DNA of 64,000 nucleotides from Raja brachyura. Lineage: Eukaryota. Numbering within the stretch: the stretch's first letter is position 1; each line of letters starts with the position of its first letter. Under the pieces are notes generated by a model. The model worked only from the letters and a program-made list of their open reading frames with translations. It was not told the DNA's origin and did not search any database. The DNA lies in the NCBI GenBank assembly GCA_963514005.1, contig OY740799.1, forward strand, positions 33,232,001 through 33,296,000, in the 5' to 3' direction. Shown one piece after another: positions 1 to 44,900 of this stretch. A program made the translations under genes and the position numbers.

Positions 1-260
1 AGTCTTGAGATTCAAACTAGAATTGTGTTTTAATGCAATGCAAAGGAACGACAGTAATGCCCAAAGTATGTGCTGGAGTTGAAACACATACAAATATTAC
101 TGCTGAATGTAGTATGGATTGTATATTTGCAGTGACTATGTTGAAATATTATTCCACAACTTCTTTTAATTTGTGCAATATATGTTCATTTTGTTACTCC
201 TCTCTCAAATGTGTAATTCTTCAAGTTGAATGTAAAGGTCGTGTATGTATGTGTTTACAG

Positions 261-2991
261 AAAGAACTACACCAACAGCGACAACAACAACAGAATCTAC
301 CACCAGTCCCACAACTGGTGAGTGATAACTACTCTCAATGTAAACCCATGGGTTTTTATATCACAGCTAAGCTCATAAACATTATTTTCAGTTGCACTAC
401 TTTCCCTTCCTATCTTCAATTTCACTTCATCCATAACAGATGAGTGATCACCTCTGTCAGTATATACTCACTGGCTGTTGGATTTGGTTGTTCAATTAAA
501 ACTTCTACTCATCTTCAGTGAAAGTCTAATAATTTGACCTTTCCACTACAATTTCCAATAACAAGCATTGGTCTAAATATTGAATGAAGGGTCCTGAAAT
601 TTATTTCTGCAGACAATTATTAGAATCCTCTTCTTTAAATGATGGCAACTATGATGATCAGCCAGCCTGTGTGAGTCTCAATAAAGCATCTCTCATGGGT
701 AATTAAGCTATGTAATTCATAATAAAAGTGCAATGGTAGGTTTTCTGGTGATTGCCATAAATAAGTGGGTACACCACACTGAAATGCATTGAAGTCTTTG
801 AGGGAATGAAAACTGAGCAAAAATCGTGCAGGACTATACTATTTTGTTGCTGCTGCATCTCTACTCGTGATGGTTCTGCAGAGAAGAAAATAATTTTTCC
901 ATGTCTAAATTGTTTTCACATTTCTCAATAATTTCTCAGCATTACACTTGAAAGTTCCAAGTGATCAACAGTATGTTAAGTGCAGTTACCACACTTGCTC
1001 ACAAAATAATGTTCTATTGAAAGTATGGTTTCCTTGTGATGCAGATAAATCACCCAGCACATTATATTGCTGAATGGAGTATGGTTATCATTTTGAAGCC
1101 ATTTGCTGAAATTATGTTACACAATCATTTATCCGGCTAATTTTCTACTTCCTCAGTTGTGCCATTCATCGTTGAATGGTCATGAATGCTTTTACTTTCT
1201 TAAGAAACAATAACAGTATCAACCATAACTGAGTTTACCACCAGTCAGATAACTGGTGGGTGATGCCTTCATTCAATATTAATTCATGGATATTTTAAAG
1301 CAACTATCCTTTTAAGCACTGCAAGCTTGAACTTTATTGGCTTGCCACAATCGTTTTAATTTCAGCGCAGTAGAGTTCTATCCTTCTCCAGAATCTTAAG
1401 GGTTCACTCGAGGTTGGTGATATGGCACAGAACAGATCAAATATATCTCCTTCATCAACATTCGGAATTATTTCTGTATCAAGCACTGGAAATTTGGGTT
1501 GCCATACAGCCATACGAATAAAAAAGGAACACAACACACGATAGAATTTAACATAGACATCCCCACACAGCAGAATCAACGTTTCCCACTGTGAGGGAAG
1601 GCAATAAAGTTCAGCCATCTTCCTCTTTGTTTACCCGTGGTCGGGGGCCCCAATGTTCAGGCCCTCGCCGGGATGATCGGAACTCCGACGTCGGAATGGA
1701 GAACTCTCTCAGCGACTTGGAGTTCCGAACCGGCCACCTACTGGAGACCAGGGCTCCCGATGTCCACAGGCCGTGCTTGGCGGAGATTCACACTGGCGTC
1801 CTCGCCAAAGGGACCACCAGGACTCCGCGATGTTGTTCAGCATTGCCTGCGGCTAGAAGCTCCGCAACCATAGTTCTACGATGTTAAAACAGTAGGCCCA
1901 ATGCTCCGGAGCTTCATCAAACGATCCCCAGTAAGGAACAGACAGCTCCACTCAGAGGTGTTAATTCAGTGCTGCGTCGCTGTTGAAGCTCTGGTCGGTC
2001 TCCGGAAGGAACGGCCGCGCCAATCCAGTTTGTCTGCCGCGAGGAGTGGGCGAAGATGAGAATAGTCGCATCCTCGCCAGGAAGAGACTGAGAAAAGATT
2101 CCCCACCCCCCTACCCTGACCCACTACCCCACATAAAAAGACTAAGAATACCTCCAAAACATACTTTTAAACAGACTAAAAATAACAAAAAGATGAAAAA
2201 AAAAGACAGAATGCAAACAGAGGCTGCCTTCAAATGGCGCCCCCCTGTGGTAATGTAAATGTAATCATACAACTGAAATCTGAGATACCATATTGGAGAG
2301 AGATTAAAGACCAAATGTGATATACAAAACCAGCTGATTATCTGAAAGCTAAATTTACTCTTGGGTCCTAAAGCCATATGCGTAGTTGGAAAATGAGGTA
2401 CTGTAACTTACACTGAGTACTGAACTTTATTGGAAATGTGTTGGAGATACAAAGTGGAAACGTAGGGAACATTTAAATGACTGACATATAAAATCTCATA
2501 AATAACATATACTACAGTAAATCTGTTTTGGTCTCCACTCTGCTGTGGATCCTCCCTTTCCTTTTCTTGTATACTCACTGCCTATCCTGATTATTTTTAA
2601 GATTTTATTTGTTTCTTTGCAGTAACACTTTTTCCAGACATACCCCTTGTTCTTTCTTCTCCTTTCCTTCCATCTTTCAGTCACTATTTGGGTCACTCAA
2701 TCTCACCTGGTCTCCAGCCCATCACATCATCCCCTATTTCTCTGCACTGTAAATTTTGTTGCATTCTAAATTTTCCAGTACTTATAAAATAGAATCAGTC
2801 TCAAATGTTAATTCTTAACAGATGCTGCTTGACCTACCAAGTACTCCCAGTCATTTGTGCTTTCATTTTTCTTATGTCTGAAATCTGCTTGAGCGGTATA
2901 AGAATTGAGTTGACTTTGTGATTTGAATTTGTTTGTTATTTTCCAGAAGAAACATCAACTGTTACATCAACCAGCATTCCTTCCACAACAG
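261..2991 (+). CDS. PTS microexons, unit A copy 1 (before CysD)
   Basis: 261-317 (ERTTPTATTTTESTTSPTT), 1205-1255 (ETITVSTITEFTTSQIT, weak AAG acceptor), 2947-2991 (EETSTVTSTSIPSTT); all 3n long, phase 1, AG/GT-bounded. Confidence 0.75.
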
Positions 2992-5900
2992 GTAGCTGTT
3001 GGCTTTTTCAATATATATTTATTTTGCAACCTCAACTGATCACAATGAAAATCCATTTGTTTTCTTCTCTATCATCGTCATAAACATCAACGTGCACGGT
3101 GCCTTACAATGCTATGTACGACAGTGATCATAACTTCTACTGAAGTGTGGATGGCCGTTGGCTCGCTTGGAGCTAATCTGCCTTTTGACAGGTCTTGTTT
3201 TTGGTCCTGCAGTGGGTTCACTGCCCCCTCCTCACCTGGCAAACTAGGTGGGGGAGACGGTTTAGTCACCGACTATCCGACCATGGAGCAGGTAGCACGG
3301 GATTACATGGTACCCGTGGCGGGTGGTAATCCCCCCTATCTTCTCTACCTTTTTGATATATTAGACCCTGTTCCCTGTTCCCCATTTTTACTGTCATAAG
3401 TAAAATGTTCGGTCACTCACAATGGCAGCTACTTTTATCATCATGCGGAAATTTGAACTCCCTTCTTTATAAGAATATGATAGGTAACTTCTTTATTTGG
3501 GCATGCGAGGAAACTGTTTGGCCCATTGTGTCCTTTTCAACTTCCAACAGCACAATGTCATGTCCCCTGCTTATTTCCCTGTATTTCTACAACATATTCT
3601 CTTCCACATCCACTCTCCTTTGATTCTTTTGGTATTGGTCTATACAAAGGAATAATTTACAAGAGCCAATTAATCTACCAGCATGTCTCTGGGTGACAGG
3701 AGGAACTCAAGGAAGTACAGGGAGCCAATATGAGCTCCATACAAACAGCACCTAATATCAGGATTGAACTTGGATCTCTCAAGCTTTCAGGCAAAGGCAA
3801 GGCACAGCCTTCCACAGCTTGTTGAGAGTGGTCTTCTTTTCATTATAATCTCTTTCCTCCTTTAACTCTTGATTCTGTTTTATGAATTGACAGCAAACGT
3901 GTTCCTTTATCATATATTATCCTGGAGCAGCTACCTTTTTGCCATTTCCCTCTTGCCCACTAATTAAACTCTTCTGCATATATGTTATACCTTTTCACCA
4001 TATACAGTACGTAGCATGTTTCAAGGTGATATGGTGAGGCAACGCAACTACTCCAATAATGTTCTTCAATAGCACGCTGAGACCAACCCATCAAAGTGGA
4101 AAGAATATCCGGCTGTTAAAATCATGCAATAGTTAGTGCACAGCTGCAGTCAGCTGCCTGATAAGTGACATCTCACGTTTGTGCTTTATGCTTTTTCTCT
4201 ATTGTTCTGTTCTGCACTGGCAATGAATGTTTCCCTACTTGAAGTTGTATCTTAATTCAGATCAATCAACAGTTCCCCAAACATATTGTTATTATTCCCA
4301 TTTTACTGTTCCCATTTTCATTTAAACTGTAATTTGTAAGATTCATTTTGATGCACAACCATGTTTCTCAAATCTTGTTTTTTATATTTATGTTTATATT
4401 TTCCACTATGTAGTGTTTTTTTACAAGTTTGCCTTATGTTTTCTTTCTTTACATTACAGTGCCATACTGTTTGGGTGTATGGTCTCCTTGGTCTAATAAT
4501 GATACACCAACACCGTCATCTCCAAATGATTATGAATTGTTGATACCATATGGCACTCAATTGTGCCCATCTTCTTCTGATAAAATTACCACCATTCAGT
4601 GCCAATTTGCCAAACATCCTGAATGGCCACTAAGTGTATCGCCAGATGTTGTGACCTGCAATAAAGAGATAGGATTGATGTGCACATTCTCTGGATCTCC
4701 TTCTGGCCACTTTTGTAATGACTACAGAATTAGAGTTTGCTGCGAGCCAACTGAGACTACAACTGTCCCCACGACTACAACTGAGTCTACCACCAGTCCC
4801 ACGATTGGTGAGTGATACCTTCTCCAGTACTTGTTAACAGTCGTTTTAAAGGAAGGACAACTGTGTCCAAAGTATGTCCAGCTTGTGCTGGAATTGAACC
4901 AAATACAAATATTACTGCTCAATGTTGCGATGATTATAAATTTGCAGTGGCTTTTGTTGAAGTTATTCCACAACTTCTCTTTAATCAATATATGCTGATT
5001 TTGTTACTACACTTCCAAATGTGCCTTTCTTCGTTGAATATAAAAGACATGTATGCATTTGTTTACAGAAGAAACAACAACAACAACAACAACAGCTACG
5101 ACCACCACAGAATCTACCACCAGTCCTACAACTGGTAAGTGATATCTTATCTCAATGTGCACTCATAGTTTTTTTTTAATCACAGCTGAGCTCATACACA
5201 CACGTTCCCATCCTTGCTTCAAGTTTTGCAATTTCATGATCCCATTTTAGAGTCTGTGGGTTCAGTCTTGATGGTCCTCTGATGCTGGATAGAGGTAGTG
5301 CAGCACTGACAATACTGTGCTGTTCAGCTTGAGATTTTGAGCTGGGTTTGTGAGTGTGCTGTTGTGACTGCGGTATATTTTGTGGCCAATAGCAAAGAAC
5401 AGAAACATCTCTCAACTACCATGAATAATAACGATGATTACAACAAAATTTCTCAGGAAATATTTTTAAGTTCTATAGTTTATCGGATGTAGATATGAAT
5501 AAGTAGTTTCTGGTGTTCCCTATATTTCAGCTGTGACCATATTTTAATACAATTTCTTGCTGCAAGTCCTTTGCAAGATAGGAAGTATTGAAAGGAGTTT
5601 ATCTCGACTTTACACAATCTCTTTTGAAATAGTCCAATTACCACCTGCATTTGTCGGTCATTCAAAATCTACGATTCAACATGGATGATTTAATTGTCCA
5701 TGAATTTGTTTCTCTTTCGAAGAAACATCTACAACAACCAGCACAACTGAGTCCACAACCACTTCCACAACTGGTGGGTGGTGATATTTTCATTTGTAAA
5801 TCTTTTTAACACAAGCTCACCTATACATATACATACTATATCACATAATTTAAAACAAATGTAATGCCTTGGTAGACAAAAATGCTGGAGAAACTCAGCA

Positions 5901-8900
5901 GGTGCAGCAACATCTATGCAGCGAAGGATATAGGCAACGTTTCGGGCCGAAACCCTTCTTCAGACCCTTTCGGCCCGAAGCGTTGCCTATTTCCTTCACT
6001 CCATAGATGCTGCTGCACCCGCTGAGTTTCACCAACATTTTTGTCTACCTTCGATTTTCCAGCATCTACAGTTCCTTCGTAAATAAATGTAATGCCTTTA
6101 TTATTTTCCAGAAGAAACCACTCCCACGGTGACACCAAGCACCACCACCACCTACACAACAGGTGAGTGATCACCTCTGTCAGTAGCTTATTACCAGCCG
6201 TAACGTTCAGTCATTCAATTTCAACTTCTGCTTGCCTTCAGTTTAATCATTCTTCAACTTGCATGTAATGCTTTTATTTGCAGAAAAAACAACAATAACA
6301 ACGCCAGGGCCACCCACAACCACGTCTACCACCAGCCCCACAACTGGTGAGTAATGCATTTTATCAATCATTTTAACACAAATATGCTCACAGTACCACT
6401 TGCAGGTTGTGACAATGATGATCACTCTTGCCTTGTGCAACACAATTTTACCTCAGCAGCTCATGGGATGTTATCGAATTTCAAAGTCTTGAGATTCAAA
6501 CTAGAATTGTGTTTTAATGCAATGCAAAGGAACGACAGTAATGCCCAAAGTATGTGCTGGAGTTGAAACACATACAAATATTACTGGTGAATGTAGTATG
6601 GATTGTATATTTGCAGTGACTATGTTGAAATATTATTCCACAACTTCTTTTAATTTGTGCAATATATGTTCATTTTGTTACTCCTCTCTCAAATGTGTAA
6701 TTCTTCAAGTTGAATGTAAAGGCCGTGTATGTATGTGTTTACAGAAAGAACTACACCAACAGCGACAACAACAACAGAATCTACCACCAGTCCCACAACT
6801 GGTGAGTGATAACTACTCTCAATGTAAACCCATGGGTTTTTATATCACAGCTAAGCTCATAAACATTATTTTCAGTTGCACTACTTTCCCTTCCTTTCTT
6901 CAATTTCACTTCATCCATAACAGATGAGTGATCGCCTCTGTCAGTATATACTCACTGGCTGTTGGATTTGGTTGTTCAATTGAAACTTCTACTCATCTTC
7001 AGTGAAAGTCTAATAATTTGACCTTTCCACTACAATTTCCAATAACAAGCATTGGTCTAAATATTGAATGAAGGGTCCTGAAATTTATTTCTGCAGACAA
7101 TTATTAGAATCCTCTTCTTTAAATGATGGCTACTATGATGATCAGCCAGCCTGTGTGAGTCAATAAAGCATCTCTCATGGGTAATTAAGCTATGTAATTC
7201 ATAATAAAAGTGCAATGGTAGGTTTTCTGGTGATTGCCATAAATAAGTGGGTACACCACACTGAAATGCATTGAAGTCTTTGAGGGAATGAAAACTGAGC
7301 AAAAATCGTGCAGGACTATACTATTTTGTTGCTGCTGCATCTCCACTCGTGATGGTTCTGCAGAGAAGAAAATAATTTTTCCATGTCTAAATTGTTTTCA
7401 CATTTCTCAATAATTTCTCAGCATTACACTTGAAAGTTCCAAGTGATCAACAGTATGTTAAGTGCAGTTACCACGCTTGCTCACAAAATAATGTTCTATT
7501 GAAAGTATGATTTCCTTGTGATGCAGATAAATCACCCAGCACATTATATTGCTGAATGGAGTATGGTTATCATTTTGAAGCCATTTGCTGAAATTATGTT
7601 ACACAATCATTTATCCGGCTAATTTTCTACTTCCTCAGTTGTGCCATTCATCGTTGAATGGTCATGAATGCTTTTATTTTCTTAAGAAACAATAACAGTA
7701 TCAACCATAACTGAGTTTACCACCAGTCAGATAACTGGTGGGTGATGCCTTCATTCAATATTAATTCATGGATATTTTAAAGCAACTATCCTTTTAAGCA
7801 CTGCAAGCTTGAACTTTATTGGCTTGCCACAATCGTTTTAATTTCAGCGCAGTAGAGTTCTATCCTTCTCCAGAATCTTAAGGGTTCACTCGAGGTTGGT
7901 GATATGGCACAGAACAGATCAAATATATCTCCTTCATTAACATTCGGAATTATTTCTGTATCAAGCACTGGAAATTTGGGTTGCCATACAGCCATACGAA
8001 TAAAAAAGGAACACAACACACGATAGAATTTAACATAGACATCCCCACACAGCAGAATCAACGTTTCCCACTGTGAGGGAAGGCAATAAAGTTCAGCCAT
8101 CTTCCTCTTTGTTTACCCGTGGTCGGGGGCCCCAATGTTCAGGCCCTCGCCGGGATGATCGGAACTCCGACGTCGGAATGGAGAACTCTCTCAGCGACTT
8201 GGAGTTCCGAACCGGCCACCTACCGGAGACCAGGGCTCCCGATGTCCACAGGCCGTGCTTGGCGGAGATTCACACTGGCGTCCTCGCCAAAGGGACCACC
8301 AGGACTCCGCGATGTTGTTCAGCATTGCCTGCGGCTAGAAGCTCCGCAACCATAGTTCTACGATGTTAAAACAGTAGGCCCAATGCTCCGGAGCTTCATC
8401 AAACGATCCCCAGTAAGGAACAGACAGCTCCACTCAGAGGTGTTAATTCAGTGCTGCGTCGCTGTTGAAGCTCTGGTCGGTCTCCGGAAGGAACGGCCGC
8501 GCCAATCCAGTTTGTCTGCCGCGAGGAGTGGGCGAAGATGAGAATAGTCGCATCCTCGCCAGGAAGAGACTGAGAAAAGGTTCCCCACCCCCCTACCCTG
8601 ACCCACTACCCCACATAAAAAGACTAAGAATACCTCCAAAACATACTTTTAAACAGACTAAAAATAACAAAAAGATGAAAAAAAAAGACAGAATGCAAAC
8701 AGAGGCTGCCTTCAAATGGCGCCCCCTGTGGTAATGTAAATGTAATCATACAACTGAAATCTGAGATACCATATTGGAGAGAGATTAAAGACCAAATGTG
8801 ATATACAAACCAGCTGATTATCTGAAAGCTAAATTTACTCTTGGGTCCTAAAGCCATATGCGTAGTTGGAAAATGAGGTACTGTAACTTACACTGAGTAC

Positions 8901-11900
8901 TGAACTTTATTGGAAATGTGTTGGAGATACAAAGTGGAAACGTAGGGAACATTTAAATGACTGACATATAAAATCTCATAAATAACATATACTACAGTAA
9001 ATCTGTTTTGGTCTCCACTCTGCTGTGGACCCTCCCTTTCCTTTTCTTGTATATTCACTGCCTATCCTGATTATTTTTAAGATTTTATTTGTTTCTTTGC
9101 AGTAACACTTTTTCCAGACATACCCCTTGTTCTTTCTTCTCCTTTCCTTCCATCTTTCAGTCACTATTTGGGTCACTCAATCTCTCCTGGTCTCCAGCCC
9201 ATCACATCATCCCCTATTTCTCTGCACTGTAAATTTTGTTGCATTCTAAATTTTCCAGTACTTATAAAATAGAATCAGTCTCAAATGTTAATTCTTAACA
9301 GATGCTGCTTGACCTACCAAGTACTCCCAGTCATTTCTGCTTTCATTTTTCTTATGTCTGAAATCTGCTTGAGCGGTATAAGAATTGAGTTGACTTTGTG
9401 ATTTGAATTTGTTTGTTATTTTCCAGAAGAAACATCAACTGTTACATCAACCAGCATTCCTTCCACAACAGGTAGGTGTTGGCTTTTTCAATATATATAT
9501 ATATTTTGCAACCTCAACTGATCACAATGAAAATCCATTTGTTTTCTTCTCTATCATCGTCATCGTTGAAAACATCAACGTGCACGGTGCCTTACAATGC
9601 TATGTACGACAGTGATCATAACTTCTACTGAAGTGTGGATGGCCGTTGGCTCGCTTGGAGCTAATCTGCCTTTTGACAGGTCTTGTTTTTGGTCCTGCAG
9701 TGGGTTCACTGCCCCCTCCTCACCTGGCAAACTAGGTGGGGGAGACAGTTTAGTCACCGACTATCCGACCATGGAGCAGGTAGCACGGGATTACATGGTA
9801 CCCGTGGCGGGTGGTAATCCCCCCTATCTTCTCTACCTTTTTGATATATTAGACCCTGTTCCCTGTTCCCCATTTTTACTGTCATAAGTAAAATGTTCGG
9901 TCACTCACAATGGCAGCTACTTTTATCATCATGCAGATATTTGAACTCCCTTCTTTATAAGAATATGATAGGTAACTTCTTTATTTGGGCATGCGAGGAA
10001 ACTGTTTGGCCCATTGTGTCCTTTTCAACTTCCAACAGCACAATGTCATGTCCCCTGCTTATTTCCCTGTATTTCTACAACATATTCTCTTCCACATCCA
10101 CTCTCCTTTGATTCTTTTGGTATTGGTCTATACAAAGGAATAATTTACAAGAGCCAATTAATCTACCAGCATGTCTCTGGGTGACAGGAGGAACTCAAGG
10201 AAGTACAGGGAGCCAATATGAGCTCCATACAAACAGCACCTAATATCAGGATTGAACTTGGATCTCTCAAGCTTTCAGGCAAAGGCAAGGCACAGCCTTC
10301 CACAGCTTGTTGAGAGTGGTCTTCTTTTCATTATAATCTCTTTCCTCCTTTAACTCTTGATTCTGTTTTATGAATTGACAGCAAACGTGTTCCTTTATCA
10401 TATATTATCCTGGAGCAGCTACCTTTTTGCCATTTCCCTCTTGCCCACTAATTAAACTCTTCTGCATATATGTTATACCTTTTCACCATATACAGTACGT
10501 AGCATGTTTCAAGGTGATATGGTGAGGCAACGCAACTACTCCAATAATGTTCTTCAATAGCACGCTGAGACCAACCCATCAAAGTGGAAAGAATATCCGG
10601 CTGTTAAAATCATGCAATAGTTAGTGCACAGCTGCAGTCAGCTGCCTGATAAGTGACATCTCACGTTTGTGCTTTATGCTTTTTCTCTATTGTTCTGTTC
10701 TGCACTGACAATGAATGTTTCCCTACTTGAAGTTGTATCTTAATTCAGATCAATCAACAGTTCCCCAAACATATTGTTATTATTCCCATTTTACTGTTCC
10801 CATTTTCATTTAAACTGTAATTTGTAAGATTCATTTTGATGCACAACCATGTTTCTCAAATCTTGTTTTTTATATTTATGTTTATATTTTCCACTATGTA
10901 GTGTTTTTTTACAAGTTTGCCTTATGTTTTCTTTCTTTACATTACAGTGCCATACTGTTTGGGTGTATGGTCTCCTTGGTCTAATAATGATACACCAACA
11001 CCGTCATCTCCAAATGATTATGAATTGTTGATACCATATGGCACTCAATTGTGCCCATCTTCTTCTGATAAAATTACCACCATTCAGTGCCAATTTGCCA
11101 AACATCCTGAATGGCCACTAAGTGTATCGCCAGATGTTGTGACCTGCAATAAAGAGATAGGATTGATGTGCACATTCTCTGGATCTCCTTCTGGCCACTT
11201 TTGTAATGACTACAGAATTAGAGTTTGCTGCGAGCCAACTGAGACTACAACTGTCCCCACGACTACAACTGAGTCTACCACCAGTCCCACGACTGGTGAG
11301 TGATACCTTCTCCAGTACTTGTTAACAGTCGTTTTAAAGGAAGGACAACTGTGTCCAAAGTATGTCCAGCTTGTGCTGGAATTGAACCAAATACAAATAT
11401 TACTGCTCAATGTTGCGATGATTATAAATTTGCAGTGGCTTTTGTTGAAGTTATTCCACAACTTCTCTTTAATCAATATATGCTGATTTTGTTACTACAC
11501 TTCCAAATGTGCCTTTCTTCGTTGAATATAAAGGACATGTATGCATTTGTTTACAGAAGAAACAACAACAACAACAACAGCCACGACCACCACAGAATCT
11601 ACCACCAGTCCTACAACTGGTAAGTGATATCTTATCTCAATGTGCACTCATAGTTTTTTTTTATCACAGCTGAGCTCATACACACACGTTCCCATCCTTG
11701 CTTCAAGTTTCGCAATTTCATGATCCCATTTTAGAGTCTGTGGGTTCAGTCTTGATGGTCCTCTGATGCTGGATAGAGGTAGTGCAGCACTGACAATACT
11801 GTGCTGTTCAGCTTGAGATTTTGAGCTGGGTTTGTGAGTGTGCTGTTGTGACTGCGGTATATTTTGTGGCCAATAGCAAAGAACAGAAACATCTCTCAAC

Positions 11901-32900: not shown

Positions 32901-35900
32901 GACTACAGAATTAGAGTTTGCTGCGAGCCAACTGGGACTACAACTATCCCCACGACTACAACTGAGTCTACCACCAGTCCCAAGACTGGTGAGTGATACC
33001 TTCTCCAGTACCTGTTAACAGTCGTTTTAAAGGAAGGACAACAATGTCCAAAGTATGTCCAGCTTGTGCTGGAATTGAACCAAATACAAATGTTACTGCT
33101 GAATGTTGCGATGATTATAAATTTGCAGTGGCTTTTGTTGAAGTTATTCCACAACTTCTCTTTAATCAATATATGCTGATTTTGTTACTACACTCCCAAA
33201 TGTGCCTTTCTTCGTTGAATATAAAGGACATGTATGCATTTGTTTGCAGAAGAAACAACAACAACAACAACTACGACCACCACAGAATCTACCACCAGTC
33301 CTACAACTGGTAAGTGATAACTTATCTCAATGTACACTCATGGGTTTTTTTTATCACAGCTGAGCTCATACACACATGTTCCCATCCTTGCTTCAAGTTT
33401 TGCAATTTCAGCTCAGTAGTTCATGATCCCATTTCAGAGTCTGTGGGTCAGTCGTGATGGTCCTCTGATGCAGGATAGGGATAGTGCAGCATTGCCAATA
33501 CTGTGCTATTCAGCATGAGATTTTGAGCTGTGTTTGTGAATGTGCTGCCGTGACTGAGGTATATCTTATGGCCAAATTACAGAAAATTACAGAAAAAACA
33601 TGAATAATAACAATTATTGCAACAACATTTCTCAGAATATATTTTTAAGCTTTTTAGTTTGTACAGTGAAGATATGAATAAGTAGGTTAAGGTGTTCCCT
33701 ACATTTCAGCTGTGACCATATTTTAGTACAATTTCAGCTCAATAGATAATGAGCTGGGTTTGTTCAATATATGTTGATTTTGTTACTACTCACTCAAATG
33801 AGCCTCTCGTTGTGGGATAACTTCCCTCAATGTGCACTCATTATTTTGTTATCACTGTTGAGCTCATATACATCATACACTCATGTTCAGTGGTAGGGCT
33901 TTATCCTCCTTGCATCAAGTTTGGCAATTTCAGCTCAGTCATTCATGGTCCCATTTCAGAGTCTGTTTGTTCAGTCTTGATGGTCCTCTGGTGCATGATA
34001 GGGGTAGTGCGGCACTGCCGATTATATGCAAATCTGCTTCAGATTTTGAGCTGGGTTTGTAAATGTACTGTTGTGACAGCAGTATATCTTGTGGCCAATG
34101 GCAAAGAACAGAAAAGTCTCTCCACTGCTCTGAATAATAGCAATAATTACAGCAACATTTCTCAGAAAATGTTTTTTAGCTGTATAGTTTATTCAGTGAG
34201 GATATGAATAAGTACAGTGGCTTGCAAAAGTTTTCATACCCCTTGAACTTTTCCACACTTTGTCACGTTACAACCACAAACGTAAATGTATTTTATTAGG
34301 ATTTTACGTGATAGACCAACACAAAGTGGCGCATAATTGTGAAGTTGAAGGAAAATTATACGAGGTTTTAAAATTTTTTTACAAATAAAAAACTGAAAAG
34401 TGTGGCGTGCAAAAGTATTCAGCCCCCTTTACTCTGATACCCCTAAATAAAATCTAGTGCAACCAATTGCCTTCAGAAGTCACCTAATTAGTAAATAGAG
34501 TCCACTTGTGTGTAATCTAATCTCAGTATAAATACAGCTGTTCTGTGAAGGTCTCAGAGGTTTGTTAGAGAACATTAGTGAACAAACAGCTTCATGAAGC
34601 CCAAGGAACGCACCAGACAGGTCAGGGATAAAGTTGTGGAGAAGTTTAAAGCAGGGTTAGGTTATAAAAAAATATCCCAAACTTTGAACATCTCACGGAG
34701 CACTGTTCAATCCATCATCCGAAAATAGAAAGAGTATGGCACAACTGCAAACCTACCAAGACATGGCCATCCACCTAAACTGACAGGCCGGGCAAGGAGA
34801 GCATTGATAAGAGACGCAGCCAAGAGGCCCATGGTAACTCTGGAGGAGCTGCAGAGATCCACAGCTCAGGTGGGAGAATCTGTCCACAGGACAACTATTA
34901 GTCGTGCACTCCACTAATCGGGCCTTTATGGAAGAGTGGCAAGAAGAAAGCCATTGTTGAAACAAAGCCATAAGAAGTCCCGTTTGCAGTTTTCCACAAG
35001 CCATGTGGGGGACACAGTAAACATGTGGAGGAAGGTTACACAAAATGCTGGAGAAACTCAGCGGGTGCAGCAACATCTAAGGAGCGAAGGAGATAGGCGA
35101 CGTTTTGGGTCGGGACCCTTCTTCAGAAGGTGCTCTGGTCTGATGAGAACAAAATTGAAGGTTTTGGCCTAAATGCAAAACGCTATGTGTGGCGGAAACC
35201 TAACACAGCACATCACCCTGAACACACCATCCCCACTGTGAAACATGGTGGTGGCAGCGTCATGCTGTGGGGATGCTTTTCTTCAGCAGGGACAGGGAAG
35301 CTGGTCAGAGTTGATGGGAAGATGGATAGAGCCAAATACAGGGCAATCTTGGAAGAAATTCTGCTAGAGTCTGCAAAAGACTTGAGACTGGGGCGGAGGT
35401 TCACCTTCCAGCAGGACAACGACCCTAAACATACAGCCAGAGCTACAATGGAATGGTTTAGATCAAAGCATATTCATGTGTTAGAATGGCCCAGTCAAAG
35501 TCCAGACCTAAATCCAATTGAGAATCTCTGGCAAGACTTGAAAATTGCTGTTCACAGACGCTCTCCATCCAATCTGACTAAGCTTGAGCTATTTTGCAAA
35601 GAAGAATGGGCAAAAATTTCAGTCTCTAGATGTGCAAAGCTGGTAGAGACATACCCCAAAAGCCTTGCAGCTGTAATTGCAGCGAAAGGTGGTTCTAAAA
35701 AGTATTGACTCAGGGGGGCAGAATACTTTTGCATGCCACACTTTTCAGTTTTTTATTTGTAATAAAATTTGGAAACCATGTATCATTTTCCTTCCGCTTC
35801 ACAATTATGCAGCACTTTGTGTTGGTCTATCACATAAAATCCCAATATAATACATTTACGTTTGTGGTTGTTACGTGACAAAATGTGGAAAAGTTCAAGG

Positions 35901-38900
35901 GTTATGAAAACTTTTGCAAGCCACTGTATGTCACGGTGTTCCCTACATTTCAGCTGTGACCGTATTTCAGTACAATTTCTTGCAGTAAGACCTTTGCTAA
36001 ATGGGAAGTAATTAAATGTGTTTATTTCCACTTTACTCTTTTGTAATTGGGAAATATCTGCTGAATTTGCTGGTCATTCATAATCTTGTATTCAAGATGA
36101 ATGAATTATTTGTCCATTAACTTGTTTTTCTTTTGAAGAAACATCTACAACAACCAGCACAACTGAGGCCACAACCACTTCCACAACTGGTGAGTAATGA
36201 TATTTTCAAGAATCATTTGCGATTCATTTTAATACAGTACAAGCCTCTGCCAGACTACATATGCACATACTGAGTATCTATGTATATACAGATAATTTTG
36301 CTTCTAAACAAAAGTAAATCCTTTGTTATTTTCCATTAAAAAACAGTTACCACGGTGACACCAAGCACCATCACCTCCACACCAGGTGATTGAATGCTTC
36401 TGTCGGTATGTTATTAGCAGCCATTAGGTTCAGACATTTTTTTTTATGTAATGGTTTTAATTGCAGAAGAAACAACAACAACAACAACAACAGAGACAAC
36501 CACCACTGAGTCTACCACCAGTCCCACGACTGGTGAGTGATACCTTCTCCAGTACTTGTTAACAGTCATTTTAAAGGACGGACAACAATGTCCAAAGTAT
36601 GTCCAGCTTGTGCTGGACGTACAAATTAGAACCACAAAGAGTTCAACCACATACAAATGTTACTGCTGAATGCCTTGTTGATTATAAATTTGCAGTGGCT
36701 TTTGTTGTAGTTATTCCACAACTTCTTTTAATTTATGTAATATATGCTGATTTTGTTACTACTCTCCCAAATTCTTCAAGTTGAATATAAAGGACATGTA
36801 TGCATTTGTTTACAGAAGAAACAACAACACCAACAACAACAGCCACGACCACAACAGAAACAACTCCCACGGTGCCACCAAGCACCACCACCACCTACAC
36901 AACAGGTGAGTGATCACCTCTGTCAGTAGGTTATTACCAGCTGTAACGTTCAGTCATTCGATTTCAACTTCTGCTTGCCCTCACTTGAATCATTCTTCAA
37001 GTTGCATGTAATGCTTTTATTTGCAGAAAAAACAACAACAGAGCCAACCACAACCGCGTCTACCACCAGCCCCACAACTGGTGAGTAATGCATTTTACCA
37101 ATCATTTTAACACAAATATGCTCAAATACAGTATCACTCGCAGGTTGTGACAAGGAAGTACAAGGAGCCATTATAAGCTCCATACAAACAGCACCGAATA
37201 TCAGGATTGAACTTGGATCTCTCAAGCTTTCAGGCAAAGGCGAGGCATAGCCTTCCACAGCTTATTGAGAGTGGTCTTCTTTTCATTATAATCTCTTTCC
37301 TGCTTTAACTCTTGGTTCTGTTTAATGAATTGACAGCAAACGTGTTCCTTTATCATATATTATCCTGGAGCAGCTACCTTTTTGCCATTTCCCTCTTGCC
37401 CACCAATTAATCTCTTCTGCATATATGATCTATCTTTTCACCACATACAGTACGTAGCATGTTTAAAGGTGATATGGTGAGGCAGCGCAACTACTCCAAT
37501 AATGTTCTTCAATAGCACGCTGAGACCAACCCATGAAAGTGGGAAGAATATCCGCCTGTTAAAATCATGCAATAGTTAGTGCACAGCTGCAGTCAGCTGC
37601 CTGATAAGTGACCTCGCGTTTGTGCTTTATGCTTTTTCCCCATTGTTCTGTTCTGCACTTGCAATTACTGTTTCCCTGTCTGATACTTGAGGTTGTATGT
37701 CAGTTCAGATCAATCAACAGTTCCCCAAACATATTATTATTATTCCCGTTTTACTGTTCCCACTTTTTTTTAAACTGTAATTTGGAAGATTCATGTTGAT
37801 GCACAACCATGTTTCTCTAATCTTGTGTTTTATATTTATGTTTATATTTTCCACTTTGTATTGTCTTATACAAGTTTGCCTTATGTTTTCTTTCTTTACA
37901 TTACAGTGCCAGACTGTTTGGGTGTATGGTCTCATTGGCATAGTAAACATACACCAACACCGTCATCTCCAAATGATTATGAATTGTTGAACACATATGG
38001 CCCTACATTTTGCCCATCTCCTTCCGATAAAATTACCACCATTCAGTGCCAATTTGCCAACAATCCTGAATGGCCACTAAGTGTATCGCCAGATCATGTG
38101 ACCTGCAATATAGACGTCGGATTGATCTGCACGTTCTCTGGATCTCCTTCTGGCCACTTTTGTAATGACTACAGAATTAGAGTTTGCTGCGAGCCAACTG
38201 AGACTACAACTGTCCCCACGACTACAACTGAGTCTACCACCAGTCCCACGACTGGTGAGTGATACCTTCTCCAGTACTTGTTAACAGTCGTTTTAAAGGA
38301 AGGACAACAATGTCCAAAGTATGTCCAGCTTGTGCTGGAATTGAACCAAATACAAATGTTACTGCTGAATGTTGCGATGATTATAAATTTGCAGTGGCTT
38401 TTGTTGAAGTTATTCCACAACTTCTCTTTAATCAATATATGCTGATTTTGTTACTACACTCCCAAATGTGCCTTTCTTCGTTGAATATAAAGGACATGTA
38501 TGCATTTGTTTACAGAAGAAACAACAACAACAACAACTACGACCACCACAGAATCTACCACCAGTCCTACAACTGGTAAGTGATAACTTATCTCAATGTA
38601 CACTCATGGTTTTTTTTTATCACAGCTGAGCTCATACACACATGTTCCCATCCTTGCTTCAAGTTTTGCAATTTCAGCTCAGTAGTTCATGATCCCATTT
38701 CAGAGTCTGTGGGTCAGTCGTGATGGTCCTCTGATGCAGGATAGGGATAGTGCAGCATTGCCAATACTGTGCTATTCAGCATGAGATTTTGAGCTGTGTT
38801 TGTGAATGTGCTGCCGTGACTGAGGTATATCTTATGGCCAAATTACAGAAAATTACAGAAAAAACATGAATAATAACAATTATTGCAACAACATTTCTCA

Positions 38901-41900
38901 GAATATATTTTTAAGCTTTTTAGTTTATACAGTGAAGATATGAATAAGTAGGTTAAGGTGTTCCCTACATTTCAGCTGTGACCATATTTTAGTACAATTT
39001 CAGCTCAATAGATAATGAGCTGGGTTTGTTCAATATATGTTGATTTTGTTACTACTCACTCAAATGAGCCTCTCGTTGTGGGATAACTTCCCTCAATGTG
39101 CACTCATTATTTTGTTATCACTGTTGAGCTCATATACATCATACACTCATGTTCAGTGGTAGGGCTTTATCCTCCTTGCATCAAGTTTGGCAATTTCAGC
39201 TCAGTCATTCATGGTCCCATTTCAGAGTCTGTTTGTTCAGTCTTGATGGTCCTCTGGTGCATGATAGGGGTAGTGCGGCACTGCCGATTATATGCAAATC
39301 TGCTTCAGATTTTGAGCTGGGTTTGTAAATGTACTGTTGTGACAGCAGTATATCTTGTGGCCAATGGCAAAGAACAGAAAAGTCTCTCCACTGCTCTGAA
39401 TAATAGCAATAATTACAGCAACATTTCTCAGAAAATGTTTTTTAGCTGTATAGTTTATTCAGTGAGGATATGAATAAGTACAGTGGCTTGCAAAAGTTTT
39501 CATACCCCTTGAACTTTTCCACATTTTGTCACGTTACAACCACAAACGTAAATGTATTTTATTAGGATTTTACGTGATAGACCAACACAAAGTGGCGCAT
39601 AATTGTGAAGTGGAAGGAAAATTATACGAGGTTTTAAATTTTTTTTACAAATAAAAAACTGAAAAGTGTGGCGTGCAAAAGTATTCAGCCCCCTTTACTC
39701 TGATACCCCTAAATAAAATCTAGTGCAACCAATTGCCTTCAGAAGTCACCTAATTAGTAAATAGAGTCCACTTGTGTGTAATCTAATCTCAGTATAAATA
39801 CAGCTGTTCTGTGAAGGCCTCAGAGGTTTGTTAGAGAACATTAGTGAACAAACAGCTTCATGAAGCCCAAGGAACGCACCAGACAGGTCAGGGATAAAGT
39901 TGTGGAGAAGTTTAAAGCAGGGTTAGGTTATAAAAAAATATCCCAAACTTTGAACATCTCACGGAGCACTGTTCAATCCATCATCCGAAAATAGAAAGAG
40001 TATGGCACAACTGCAAACCTACCAAGACATGGCCATCCACCTAAACTGACAGGCCGGGCAAGGAGAGCATTGATAAGAGACGCAGCCAAGAGGCCCATGG
40101 TAACTCTGGAGGAGCTGCAGAGATCCACAGCTCAGGTGGGAGAATCTGTCCACAGGACAACTATTAGTCGTGCACTCCACTAATCGGGCCTTTATGGAAG
40201 AGTGGCAAGAAGAAAGCCATTGTTGAAACAAAGCCATAAGAAGTCCCGTTTGCAGTTTTCCACAAGCCATGTGGGGGACACAGTAAACATGTGGAGGAAG
40301 GTTACACAAAATGCTGGAGAAACTCAGCGGGTGCAGCAACATCTAAGGAGCGAAGGAGATAGGCGACGTTTTGGGTCGGGACCCTTCTTCAGAAGGTGCT
40401 CTGGTCTGATGAGAACAAAATTGAAGGTTTTGGCCTAAATGCAAAACGCTATGTGTGGCGGAAACCTAACACAGCACATCACCCTGAACACACCATCCCC
40501 ACTGTGAAACATGGTGGTGGCAGCGTCATGCTGTGGGGATGCTTTTCTTCAGCAGGGACAGGGAAGCTGGTCAGAGTTGATGGGAAGATGGATAGAGCCA
40601 AATACAGGGCAATCTTGGAAGAAATTCTGCTAGAGTCTGCAAAAGACTTGAGACTGGGGCGGAGGTTCACCTTCCAGCAGGACAACGACCCTAAACATAC
40701 AGCCAGAGCTACAATGGAATGGTTTAGATCAAAGCATATTCATGTGTTAGAATGGCCCAGTCAAAGTCCAGACCTAAATCCAATTGAGAATCTCTGGCAA
40801 GACTTGAAAATTACTGTTCACAGACGCTCTCCATCCAATCTGACTAAGCTTGAGCTATTTTGCAAAGAAGAATGGGCAAAAATTTCAGTCTCTAGATGTG
40901 CAAAGCTGGTAGAGACATACCCCAAAAGCCTTGCAGCTGTAATTGCAGCGAAAGGTGGTTCTAAAAAGTATTGACTCAGGGGGGCAGAATACTTTTGCAT
41001 GCCACACTTTTCAGTTTTTTATTTGTAATAAAATTTGGAAACCATGTATCATTTTCCTTCCGCTTCACAATTATGCAGCACTTTGTGTTGGTCTATCACA
41101 TAAAATCCCAATATAATACATTTACGTTTGTGGTTGTTACGTGACAAAATGTGGAAAAGTTCAAGGGTTATGAAAACTTTTGCAAGCCACTGTATGTCAC
41201 GGTGTTCCCTACATTTCAGCTGTGACCGTATTTCAGTACAATTTCTTGCAGTAAGACCTTTGCTAAATGGGAAGTAATTAAATGTGTTTATTTCCACTTT
41301 ACTCTTTTGTAATTGGGAAATATCTGCTGAATTTGCTGGTCATTCATAATCTTGTATTCAAGATGAATGAATTATTTGTCCATTAACTTGTTTTTCTTTT
41401 GAAGAAACATCTACAACAACCAGCACAACTGAGGCCACAACCACTTCCACAACTGGTGAGTAATGATATTTTCAAGAATCATTTGCGATTCATTTTAATA
41501 CAGTACAAGCCTCTGCCAGACTACATATGCACATACTGAGTATCTATGTATATACAGATAATTTTGCTTCTAAACAAAAGTAAATCCTTTGTTATTTTCC
41601 ATTAAAAAACAGTTACCACGGTGACACCAAGCACCATCACCTCCACACCAGGTGATTGAATGCTTCTGTCGGTATGTTATTAGCAGCCATTAGGTTTAGA
41701 CATTTTTTTTTATGTAATGGTTTTAATTGCAGAAGAAACAACAACAACAACAACAACAGAGACAACCACCACTGAGTCTACCACCAGTCCCACGACTGGT
41801 GAGTGATACCTTCTCCAGTACTTGTTAACAGTCATTTTAAAGGACGGACAACAATGTCCAAAGTATGTCCAGCTTGTGCTGGACGTACAAATTAGAACCA

Positions 41901-44900
41901 CAAAGAGTTCAACCACATACAAATGTTACTGCTGAATGCCTTGTTGATTATAAATTTGCAGTGGCTTTTGTTGTAGTTATTCCACAACTTCTTTTAATTT
42001 ATGTAATATATGCTGATTTTGTTACTACTCTCCCAAATTCTTCAAGTTGAATATAAAGGACATGTATGCATTTGTTTACAGAAGAAACAACAACACCAAC
42101 AACAACAACAGCCACGACCACAACAGAAACAACTCCCACGGTGCCACCAAGCACCACCACCACCTACACAACAGGTGAGTGATCACCTCTGTCAGTAGGT
42201 TATTACCAGCCGTAACGTTCAGTCATTCGATTTCAACTTCTGCTTGCCCTCACTTGAATCATTCTTCAAGTTGCATGTAATGCTTTTATTTGCAGAAAAA
42301 ACAACAACAACACCAGGGCTACCCACAACCACGTCTACCACCAGCCCCACAACTGGTGAGTAATGCATTTTATTAATCATTTTAACACAAATATGCTCAA
42401 ATACAGTACCACTCGCAGGTTGTGACAATGTTGATCACTCTTGCCTTGTGTGGCACAATTTTACATCAGCAGCTCATGGGATGTAATTGAATTTCAAAGT
42501 CTTGAGATTCAAACTAAAATGGTGCTTTAATGCAATGCAAAGGAACGACAGTAATGCCCAAAATATGTGCTGGAGTTGAAACACATACAAATATTACTGC
42601 TGAATGTAGTATGGATTGTATATTTGCAGTGACTATGTTGAAATATTATTCCACAACTTCTTTTAATTTGTGCAATATATGTTCATTTTGTTGTTCCTCT
42701 CTCAAATGTGTAATTCTTCAAGTTGAATGTAAAGGCCGTGTTTGTATGTGTTTACAGAAAAAACTATAACAACAGTGATGACAACAACAGAATCTACCAC
42801 CAGTCCCACAACTGGTGAGTGATAACTACTCTCAATGTAAACCCATGGGTTTTTCTATCACAGCTAAGCTCATAAACATTATTTTCAGTTGCACTCCTTT
42901 TCCCTTCCTTTCTTCAATTTCACTTCATCCATAACAGGTGAGTGATCACCTCTGTCAGTATATACTCACTGGCTGTTGGGTTTGGTTTGTTCAATTAAAA
43001 CTTCATCTCATCTTCAGTAAAAGTCTAATAATTTGACCTTTCCACTACAATTTCCAATAACAAGCTTTGTTCTAAATATTGAATGAAGGGTCCTGAAATT
43101 TATTTCTGCAGACAATTATTAGAATCATCTTCTTTAAATGATGGCTACTATGATGATCAGCCAGCCTGTGTGAGTCTCATTAAGGCATCTCTCATGGGTA
43201 ATTAAACTATGTAATTCATAATAAAAGTGCAATGGTAGGTTTTTTGGTGATTGCCATAAATAAGTGGGTACACAATGCTAAAATGCATTGAGGTTTTGCA
43301 AGAGAAGAAAATATTTTTTCCATGTCTAAATTGTTTTCACATTTCTCAATAATTTCTCAGCATTACACTTGAAAATTCCAAGTGATCATCAGTATGTTAA
43401 ATGCAGTTAACACAAAATTATGTTCTTTTGAAAGTCGAGTTTACTTGTGATACAGATAAATCGCCCTGCACATTATATTGCTGAATGGAGTCTGGTTATA
43501 ATTTTGAAGCCATTTGCTGAAAATATTTTTTTCACAATCATTTATCGGGTTAATTTGCCTTTCTTCAAGTTGAATGTAAAGGACATGTATGCATTTGTTT
43601 ACAGAAGAAACTACACCCCATGAAGAATGTTTCTGTGATTCAGATCCACCAAGAAGGGTAATTGTTTCACCCAATTGGGCAGATTTGATGTGGTCGTAAA
43701 TTTGTACTGGATACTTTACCTTTAAAATGTTGCCTTTAATTTACCTAATATCTTATTGTAGTTATCAGAATAAATTGCAATTTTTAACGGCAATGTCTCG
43801 GCTTTGCTTTGGGCTTAATGACATAGTTTATATCCTCAACATTCTATTGAACTCTGAGCTGAATTTCTAACCGTATGTCTTCATGTCAAGCACTACCTTC
43901 CGAAACTAATAACATTACACATCTCTTCACCTGTTTCACTATGTTGCCGCCAAACCTTTCATACACTCTTCTGCTTCTCCAGAGTTGACTCTTCCATTAT
44001 TTATCCACTTGGCCTAGCTCCATCCTTCTGCTTCTAATATCCGAGCCTATGCCACTTTGGATTTATCCAACACCTTTATGTAGTTTTTCCTACATTGTCC
44101 ACCAATGTCTCAGTCTTAAAATTCTCACCCTCCCTGCCTCATCCCTCCATAATCTTAACCAGCACTGAAGGTATTCAAAAACTCTGATCTCTCATTATTG
44201 GCGGCTGGATTTTCAGCCATCTAATAAACAGTATTTTGTTTTTCCAAACATTCCATCACAATAAGAGGCTTCTATGGTTCAGAGAAACCAACACGTGATG
44301 CCCTTTCATATTCAAATGGTTTAGTTGGAAACTAATGCAGCCAAGCCACCCCAAAATATGCTTTTTCATTTGCAGTAACATGCATAATTCAAACAACATG
44401 ACAAATGTGTAACCTTTTGATGTATACATTTTTTGTCATCCTTCCTTAGTGCAATGAAACATGGAAAGAGAACTGTGCAACCCTTACTTGTGTTAAAGAT
44501 GAAATGTTCAAAATTGAACATGTTGCCTGTGAATTACCCATGAAACCAAAATGTTCCAATGGATTAAACCCTATCAGAGTTGAAACTCAAGATGGTTGCT
44601 GTTCAAAGTGGGATTGTGAATGTAAGTCTTTTAATTGATTAAGATTCATCTTTCTTTTGCCAGTGGAAAAGTAATTGTCTTCATTTTTGTTTTTATTATA
44701 CATGAATCTAAACGGATTTTTTTTTTTAGATGATTGTCAGATATGGGGAGGACGACATTATCGTACCTTTGATGGGATATTCTATAACTTCTTTGAAAAT
44801 TGTACACATATTCTCGTGCAAGAAATTATCCCAAAATACAATTTTACTGTGATACTCGATAATTATTACTGCACATCATCAGCGCCTAAATCCTGTCAAC

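Follow-up and report, generated by a model that had tools for sequence, protein, structure and literature searches.

A skate Muc19-clade mucin gene with a central region of 110 frame-preserving exons in tandem genomic units

Introduction

The skin mucins FIM-B.1 and FIM-C.1 of Xenopus laevis are built from repeat cassettes, and FIM-B.1 transcripts are alternatively spliced. The polydispersity of these mucins has been ascribed to alternative splicing (PMC7177656; papers are cited here by PMC number). Chicken Muc13 has one Pro/Thr/Ser-rich (PTS) repeat per exon (PMC1552070), chicken MUC2 combines a PTS region spread over many exons with interspersed CysD domains, repeated genomic DNA around the exons and an in-frame splice variant (PMC3549977), and the centre of Xenopus tropicalis MucXS/Otogl is a multi-exon series of alternating Cys-rich and PTS repeats (PMC5789918). 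Here we describe a gel-forming mucin gene of the skate Raja brachyura. The window that was analyzed comprises 64,000 nucleotides (nt) of the forward strand of contig OY740799.1 (C19:33232001-33296000), and runs from within the array of small exons that encodes the central region of this mucin to shortly before its last exon.

The skate gene shares with FIM-type polydisperse mucins the presence of frame-preserving repeat exons (110 of 110). FIM-C.1 differs in having trefoil modules (PMC7177656). Alternative splicing has been shown for the frog mucins, whereas in the skate gene exon phase would permit it. Chicken MUC2 belongs to another clade and has 64 exons, four CysD domains and a repeat of 69 amino acids (aa), compared with ~152 exons, 14 CysD domains and small exons of 13-31 aa in the skate (PMC3549977). 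The Cys-rich repeats of MucXS/Otogl are not CysD domains, and it has no D4 (PMC5789918), whereas chicken Muc13 is a transmembrane SEA mucin without CysD (PMC1552070). Mammalian MUC2, MUC5AC, and MUC5B have the same domain order (D1-D2-D'D3-PTS/CysD-D4-CK) and homologous CysD domains, but they form another clade, encode their central region in one long exon and, in the case of MUC2, have ten Cys (five disulfides) per CysD rather than the eight seen in the skate.

The skate gene itself falls in the Muc19/spiggin clade. Its D2-D'D3 region clusters in trees with the Muc19 of mammals, coelacanth, and polypterids, and an LRRK2 exon lies nearby. Stickleback spiggins show a similar tandem gene expansion (PMC4948705; PMC2180178), and dog MUC19 models a similarly large number of annotated isoforms. 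Mammalian MUC19 has neither D4 nor CysD in the domain set given for it, unlike the skate gene with its 14 CysD domains and D4; the same source describes CysD as typical of MUC2 and MUC5 and notes D4 in some spiggins (PMC4948705). As judged by titles or the start of abstracts, we found no paper on this array or on a CysD-bearing elasmobranch Muc19, which subscription papers and the supplements of PMC4948705 may cover, and no MUC19 exon counts.

Results

Script-made exon calls between positions 261 and 42814 of the window give 48 Thr-rich exons of 39-93 nt and seven CysD exons of 348 nt. Each of the 55 has a length divisible by three, is bordered by phase 1 on either side (phase 1-1) and contains no stop codon. 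These are exactly the counts of a sequence-only reading of the same DNA, which had spoken of about 48 microexons. By the usual size limits that label is loose, since 21 of the 48 Thr-rich exons are ≤51 nt. That reading had missed a 44-kb extension of the array upstream of the window, the copying of exon types in tandem units and five decayed copies of exon r within the window. The full array, ~90 kb long, contains 96 small and 14 CysD exons (110, all phase 1-1) and 11 decayed copies, and comprises ~11 exon types copied inside tandem genomic units. A strict acceptor-exon-donor pattern has 25 matches in positions 1-43700 and none in the remaining window, on the minus strand or in the 133 kb upstream of the array. 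This confinement, together with spliced contigs from related species (see below), indicates that the exon series is not due to chance.

The CysD exons match Pfam Mucin2_WxxW with 55-58 bits (cut-off 22.4); their best PDB matches are the CysD domains of human MUC5B and MUC5AC, and they also match MUC2 CysD. The spacers between them consist of small exons plus the 20-aa tail of the CysD exon, and small-exon content per unit is 109-128 aa in 13 of 13 spacers when exon b is counted (97-120 aa without it). Splice sites are as varied as the sequence-only reading had listed, with CAG and AAG acceptors and gtgagt, gtaagt, gtgggt, gtagct, and gtgatt donors. Weak sites follow exon type: AAG acceptors are found in b and f, the gtgggt donor in b, f, and ef, the gtagct donor in five of ten copies of c (which also shows gtaggt) and the gtgatt donor in i. 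This variety amounts to four or five ancestral events, copied along with the units. Separately, CAGAAG tandem acceptors make a shift by one Glu possible in types c, e, g, j, k, and ef, and type f may use the second AG, the first one being lost; one-residue isoforms occur in the models of relatives.

The array is made up of ~10 copies of unit A, one transitional unit and four copies of unit B (Table 1), with >99% identity including introns. The other copies of unit A lie upstream of the window. The nine full A units differ from each other by 2-36 substitutions, and the three full B units by 7-12. Three chimeric exon types (j, k, and ef) with mixed flanks, one clean deletion of exon c and 11 decayed copies support unequal recombination, of which these flanks, the deletion and the loss of the r donor would be the marks. 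The donor of exon r is lost (atgagt) in nine of 11 copies, the copy at 42889-42937 is 49 nt long and out of frame, and the downstream flank of r is akin to those of g and k. Exon b is the least PTS-like type, with a Thr + Ser + Pro fraction of 0.56 versus 0.79-0.92 in the others, and no b-like peptide was found in any of the seven proteins of relatives that were checked. It is likely that b, the type with the weakest splice sites, is dead or rarely used, and it looks bypassed rather than toggled.

Exon usage was assessed from the listed joints in contigs of five runs from relatives that were guessed to be RNA (X1, X2, X4, X5, and X6). X6, which is probably DNA, gave no exon information. Divergence in unique exons is 12 of 799 letters for X1 and 39 of 801 for X2. 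Joints k>h, h>a, and exit>D4 are present in X2, X4, and X5. X5 also has g>h, h>a, a>g, a>c, and c>CysD, and X2 shares the majority of these; the shorter side covers 42-58 letters in each case. They sit at predicted GT..AG sites, and adjacent unique introns have no cover. The claim of the sequence-only reading that the exons are used in spliced transcripts is thus borne out for several of them in relatives. In their listed joints, X2 and X5 each show one linear chain. Among the 15 listed joint rows, array joints link adjacent exons only, except that remnant r is bypassed; joint a>c spans b and r, neither of which is covered. A joint f>i (GT..AG, 29 letters a side) occurs in X1 only.

We next consider family placement. 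A protein search with the Rhinoraja protein gave 1228 matches. The best 120 begin with shark and ray mucins, most of which have 53-75% identity. Muc19 sequences from coelacanth, polypterids, and mammals follow at 45-50% (mammalian 46-48%), and Muc5 stands at 40-43%. In trees of the D2-D'D3 region, midpoint-rooted and built from rows without authentic MUC2 or mammalian MUC5B, the gene groups with Muc19 (support 100/100 under a mixture model with 21 rows; Shimodaira-Hasegawa-like approximate likelihood ratio test 100 with 42 rows), separate from the Muc5 and Muc6 rows. Muc19, rather than the MUC2 and MUC5 named in the sequence-only reading, is the appropriate comparison. A Roc search placed a LRRK2 Roc exon at C19:32.797 Mb, ~350 kb upstream and within a mucin cluster, whereas a COR-A profile search did not recover LRRK2. 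The human order is SLC2A13-LRRK2-MUC19-CNTN1 (PMC10194819). The gene is thus a Muc19-clade member, yet its domains are those commonly attributed to MUC2 and MUC5 (PMC4948705). Three near-identical orthologue copies on one Rhinoraja contig (P0003, P0029, and P0030), labelled mucin-6-like, also fall in the Muc19 clade.

The whole gene spans ~146 kb and ~152 exons and encodes 5,100-5,300 aa in an open frame, for which the mRNA would measure ~16 kb. This frame has the layout of a gel-forming mucin, as the sequence-only reading had proposed: three N-terminal VWD-C8-TIL assemblies, the PTS region and, at the C terminus, a cystine knot. Upstream of the array are 28 N-terminal exons, open over 1206 aa (one small exon of ~15 aa was not located), and the N terminus is hydrophobic. 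The product would be a secreted, O-glycosylated gel-former. The closest named protein is a model from the skate Rhinoraja longicauda, with 1034 of 1226 N-terminal residues identical, in keeping with the elasmobranch origin suspected earlier. A D3-region exon at C19 ~33182200-33182312 is four codons shorter than in Rhinoraja and in frame.

Downstream of the array lie 13 C-terminal exons, which can be read without interruption for 671 aa until the stop at 65089; the last exon and stop (64927-65089) are beyond the window. D4 has a Pfam VWD match of 54.5 bits, a weak C8 match and spliced joints up to 49286; a protein search with the D4 exon as the query gave no match. The cystine knot shows a weak Pfam Cys_knot match on one exon and is 71-73% identical to a sawfish relative. 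Within the C8 of D4, positions 51030-51360 carry in frame a 12-aa Gly/Ser/Pro repeat (6.2 copies of 36 nt) with extra Cys-bearing segments; this insert was not seen in the matching region of the C18 gene described below or in the paralogous proteins compared.

Around LRRK2 (C19:30.60-33.30 Mb), VWD and CysD matches suggest ~ten mucin genes, two of which were placed in the tree. Three kinds of central region are found together in this cluster, with small exons, with one exon per repeat (31.90-31.93 Mb, ~20 CysD), or with large exons; tblastx between paralogues is noisy and gives rough exon places. Phase 1-1 recurs in the small exons at 31.48 and 30.66 Mb, in CysD + PTS exons of 590-640 nt at 31.90 Mb and in a 2.8-kb exon at 30.78 Mb; five exons at 30.66 Mb read 2-1, probably from the script choosing a second AG four bases downstream. 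At a separate locus on C18, CysD lies inside an open frame of 5481 aa (16 kb), a classic giant exon with a phase-1 acceptor. Elsewhere, C33:18.56-18.74 Mb holds many partial Mucin2_WxxW matches in two short pieces over ~170 kb, a repeat array with a split CysD-like domain.

In RefSeq, several related elasmobranch clusters hold 14-49 proteins. Isoform series occur in Leucoraja, Pristis, Mustelus, Scyliorhinus, Chiloscyllium, and Amblyraja, and what sets their members apart is a small exon, a repeat period, a lone residue, or a CysD exon, the last being skipped in Amblyraja and Scyliorhinus, for example. In Leucoraja, deletions of 13-17 aa correspond to individual exons in the C19:31.48 Mb paralogue. 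In relatives the make-up and period of the units differ (134-272 aa in most), and their models hold repeated CysD units, up to nine. Rhinoraja models have the same kinds of peptide between CysDs.

Two further observations concern the units. CysD types A (4460-4807) and B (22109-22456) are separated by 26.5 non-synonymous and 3.5 synonymous differences, with several changes to His close to WxxW; selection between them was not significant (pN 0.10, pS 0.044, Fisher p 0.26). The transposon in the e-f intron, which we take to be Tc1-like from its motifs, was amplified with unit B and could date that amplification.

Table 1. Features of the window (position 1 is its first letter)
Feature	Position	Strand	Evidence or remarks
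Unit A, last 2.8 of ~10 copies	1..18119	+	6.48 kb; order CysD-e-f-g-h-a-(r)-b-c; self-BLAST 99.2% at offset 6484
Exon a, 57 nt	261-317, 6745-6801, 13229-13285, 19192-19248, 42758-42814	+	h>a joint, 57-58 letters a side, X2, X4, X5
Decayed exon r	392..439; copies 392, 6876, 13360, 19323, 42889	+	bridged by joints
Exon b, 51 nt	1205..1255; copies 1205, 7687, 14173, 19571	+	TAAG acceptor, gtgggt donor
Exon c, 45 nt	2947..2991 (gtagct donor); 9427, 15913 (gtaggt)	+	a>c, c>CysD joints
CysD exon type A	4460-4807, 10948-11295, 17430-17777	+	8 Cys, WSPW, 20-aa PTS tail
Exon e, 60-66 nt	5069..5134; copies 5069, 11557, 22718, 27984, 33250, 38516	+	CAGAAG tandem acceptor
Exon f, 51 nt, GAAG acceptor	5723..5773, 12207 (gtgggt); 25607, 30873, 36139, 41405 (gtgagt)	+	short-sided joints, X1 only
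Exon g, 51 nt	6112..6162; copies 6112, 12596, 18573	+	joints in X2, X5
Exon h, 48-63 nt	6284..6346; copies 6284, 12768, 18745, 26495, 31761, 37027, 42296	+	joints in X1, X2, X4, X5
Chimeric exon j	18043..18102; related 66-nt copies 25935, 31201, 36467, 41733	+	e upstream flank 77/80, CysD-exon downstream flank 76/80
Chimeric exon ef, 75 nt	18393..18467	+	e start fused to f end, intron lost; flank scores 73/80, 61/80
Exon c deleted from DNA	20625..20680 (near 20647)	+	acceptor remains, doubled
Unit B, four copies	21353..42428	+	5.27 kb; order CysD-e-f-i-j-k-h; self-BLAST 99.7% at offset 5266
CysD exon type B	22109-22456, 27375-27722, 32641-32988, 37907-38254	+	WSHW
Transposon with inverted ends, broken by an insert like a short interspersed nuclear element	23682..25394 (ends approximate)	+	e-f intron, copied with every unit B
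Exon i, 39 nt	25815..25853; copies 25815, 31081, 36347, 41613	+	shifted acceptor, gtgatt donor
Chimeric exon k, 90-93 nt	26284..26373; copies 26284, 31550, 36816, 42082	+	e-like start + g end; flank scores 68/80, 76/80
Exit exon, 53 nt, phase 1-0	43605..43657	+	exit>D4 joint in X2, X4, X5
D4 assembly exons	44450-44621, 44730-44962 (VWD), 47848-48031, 49287-49497, 50938-51458 (C8 + Gly/Ser repeat insert)	+	Pfam, open chain
C-terminal exons	52548-52617, 52740-52846, 54796-54827, 58641-58751, 61574-61625, 62795-62900 (cystine knot start)	+	tblastn with sawfish relative

Discussion

This intact Muc19-clade gene of a skate carries its 110 phase 1-1 exons in tandem units. We consider it probable that these exons were spread by unequal recombination and are mostly spliced consecutively, in which case the distance between CysD modules would be determined chiefly at the DNA level. 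Exon duplication preserves the reading frame only if both borders have the same phase. Since duplication needs this symmetry, and the large central exons of paralogues share phase 1, the phase of the small exons is best understood as an inherited border state. In this scheme, one ancestral Thr-rich exon with phase-1 borders would have been duplicated, with only frame-preserving copies being tolerated, and blocks of CysD plus 5-7 small exons would then have been amplified and homogenised. Recombination between similar exons would have fused some and removed others, and copies b and r would have decayed and dropped out harmlessly. Because gaining, fusing, losing, or skipping a copy costs nothing when both borders share a phase, noise would be tolerated, probably including some in-frame skipping and the choice of tandem acceptors with or without one Glu. 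Variation in unit copy number would be expected to produce length variation between animals. By analogy with MUC2 CysD, for which non-covalent cross-linking has been reported (PMC3195396), the 14 CysD modules, separated by O-glycosylated spacers (109-128 aa plus the 20-aa tail), may cross-link non-covalently. Two multi-exon mucins lend support: frog MucXS, with 39 Cys-rich repeats, gave one dominant product in long-range reverse transcription-PCR (PMC5789918), and one splice variant but no massive alternative splicing is described for the multi-exon PTS region with CysD of chicken MUC2 (PMC3549977).

Several findings weigh against this interpretation. RefSeq models of related elasmobranch genes list up to 49 isoforms, distinguished by one small exon or by an entire CysD exon, and 15 of 41 new junction 16-mers are at least three residues away from every 16-mer of the longest form. 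X1 contains two donors with a pair of acceptors each (e>f and e>g; h>a and h>c); three of these four joints are GT..AG, and all have 20-30 letters a side. No RNA was found for R. brachyura or the sequenced individual, so that all joints come from other species, and minor skipping would not be visible because contigs lose rare forms and joints were taken as listed. Exon columns among the A units are also not clearly more conserved than introns (4/726 versus 54/5744).

The RefSeq isoforms and the X1 joints would also fit regulated combinatorial splicing, in which cells would adjust the length of the spacers and the mesh of the gel by leaving out chosen small exons or CysD exons. Such control of length was proposed for chicken Muc13 in 2006 (PMC1552070), frog FIM-C.1 has been called polymorphic via alternative splicing (PMC7177656), and it was the interpretation of the sequence-only reading. 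We regard it as rather unlikely here. All 110 exons could indeed be skipped in frame, and this part of the proposal stands, but the symmetry follows from duplication, X2 and X5 show a single chain in their listed joints, and the genomic sequence already holds the spacers at an almost constant length. Moreover, copies within an exon type are nearly identical, which leaves the splicing machinery little to distinguish. The alternative joints in X1, a run from another species, have a shorter side of just 21-30 letters and may represent other genomic units; this branching fits skipping or differing units equally. As for the isoform series in six genera, including the Leucoraja deletions that match single paralogue exons, some real skipping is plausible in paralogues, which are genes other than that of the window. 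Nevertheless, 31 of 84 RefSeq isoforms have no 16-mer that is absent from the longest form of their own gene, a pattern that mapping errors of one repeat period would produce, and much of the isoform variety could be mis-mapping.

The number of units might instead be partly an assembly artefact, the array being shorter or longer in the animal, since certain neighboring units have no more than 2-5 differences over 6.5 kb. This is improbable given that no two units are identical, that their differences are nested (U03-U07 are close, as are U02 and U08), that there are no N in 264 kb and that models of relatives also hold repeated CysD units. That most small exons are unused remnants, with the transcript jumping from CysD to CysD or to D4, we hold to be highly improbable. 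Exons b and r do look unused, r being without a donor, but three to four runs, which come from separate studies, have joints that involve g or k, h, a, c, and CysD, and Rhinoraja models hold like peptides between CysDs. A broader scenario is unlikely: sharks and rays would have expanded Muc19 into a CysD- and D4-bearing cluster that keeps an ancestral many-exon design, with regulated skipping, CysD exons included, setting the mucus mesh in each tissue, and chimeric exons would illustrate a fusion route to giant PTS exons.

The consecutively spliced array that we favor is a known design in a new form, since papers on chicken Muc13 and MUC2, frog MucXS, and FIM-C.1 already cover PTS regions divided among many exons and the idea of splicing. 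Were regulated skipping true, it would confirm the 2006 proposal that PTS length varies within one animal (PMC1552070). The family picture is corrected in that elasmobranch proteins which bear the label mucin-2-like or mucin-6-like, and which have CysD and D4, belong to the Muc19 clade. This suggests that mammalian MUC19 lost CysD and D4, a direction that we infer. Shark skin proteomics names mucin-2-like and 5B-like proteins (PMC10707392). Finally, with three central-region designs in one cluster, and fusion, deletion, and decay of exons within one gene, the origin of giant mucin exons becomes open to direct study.

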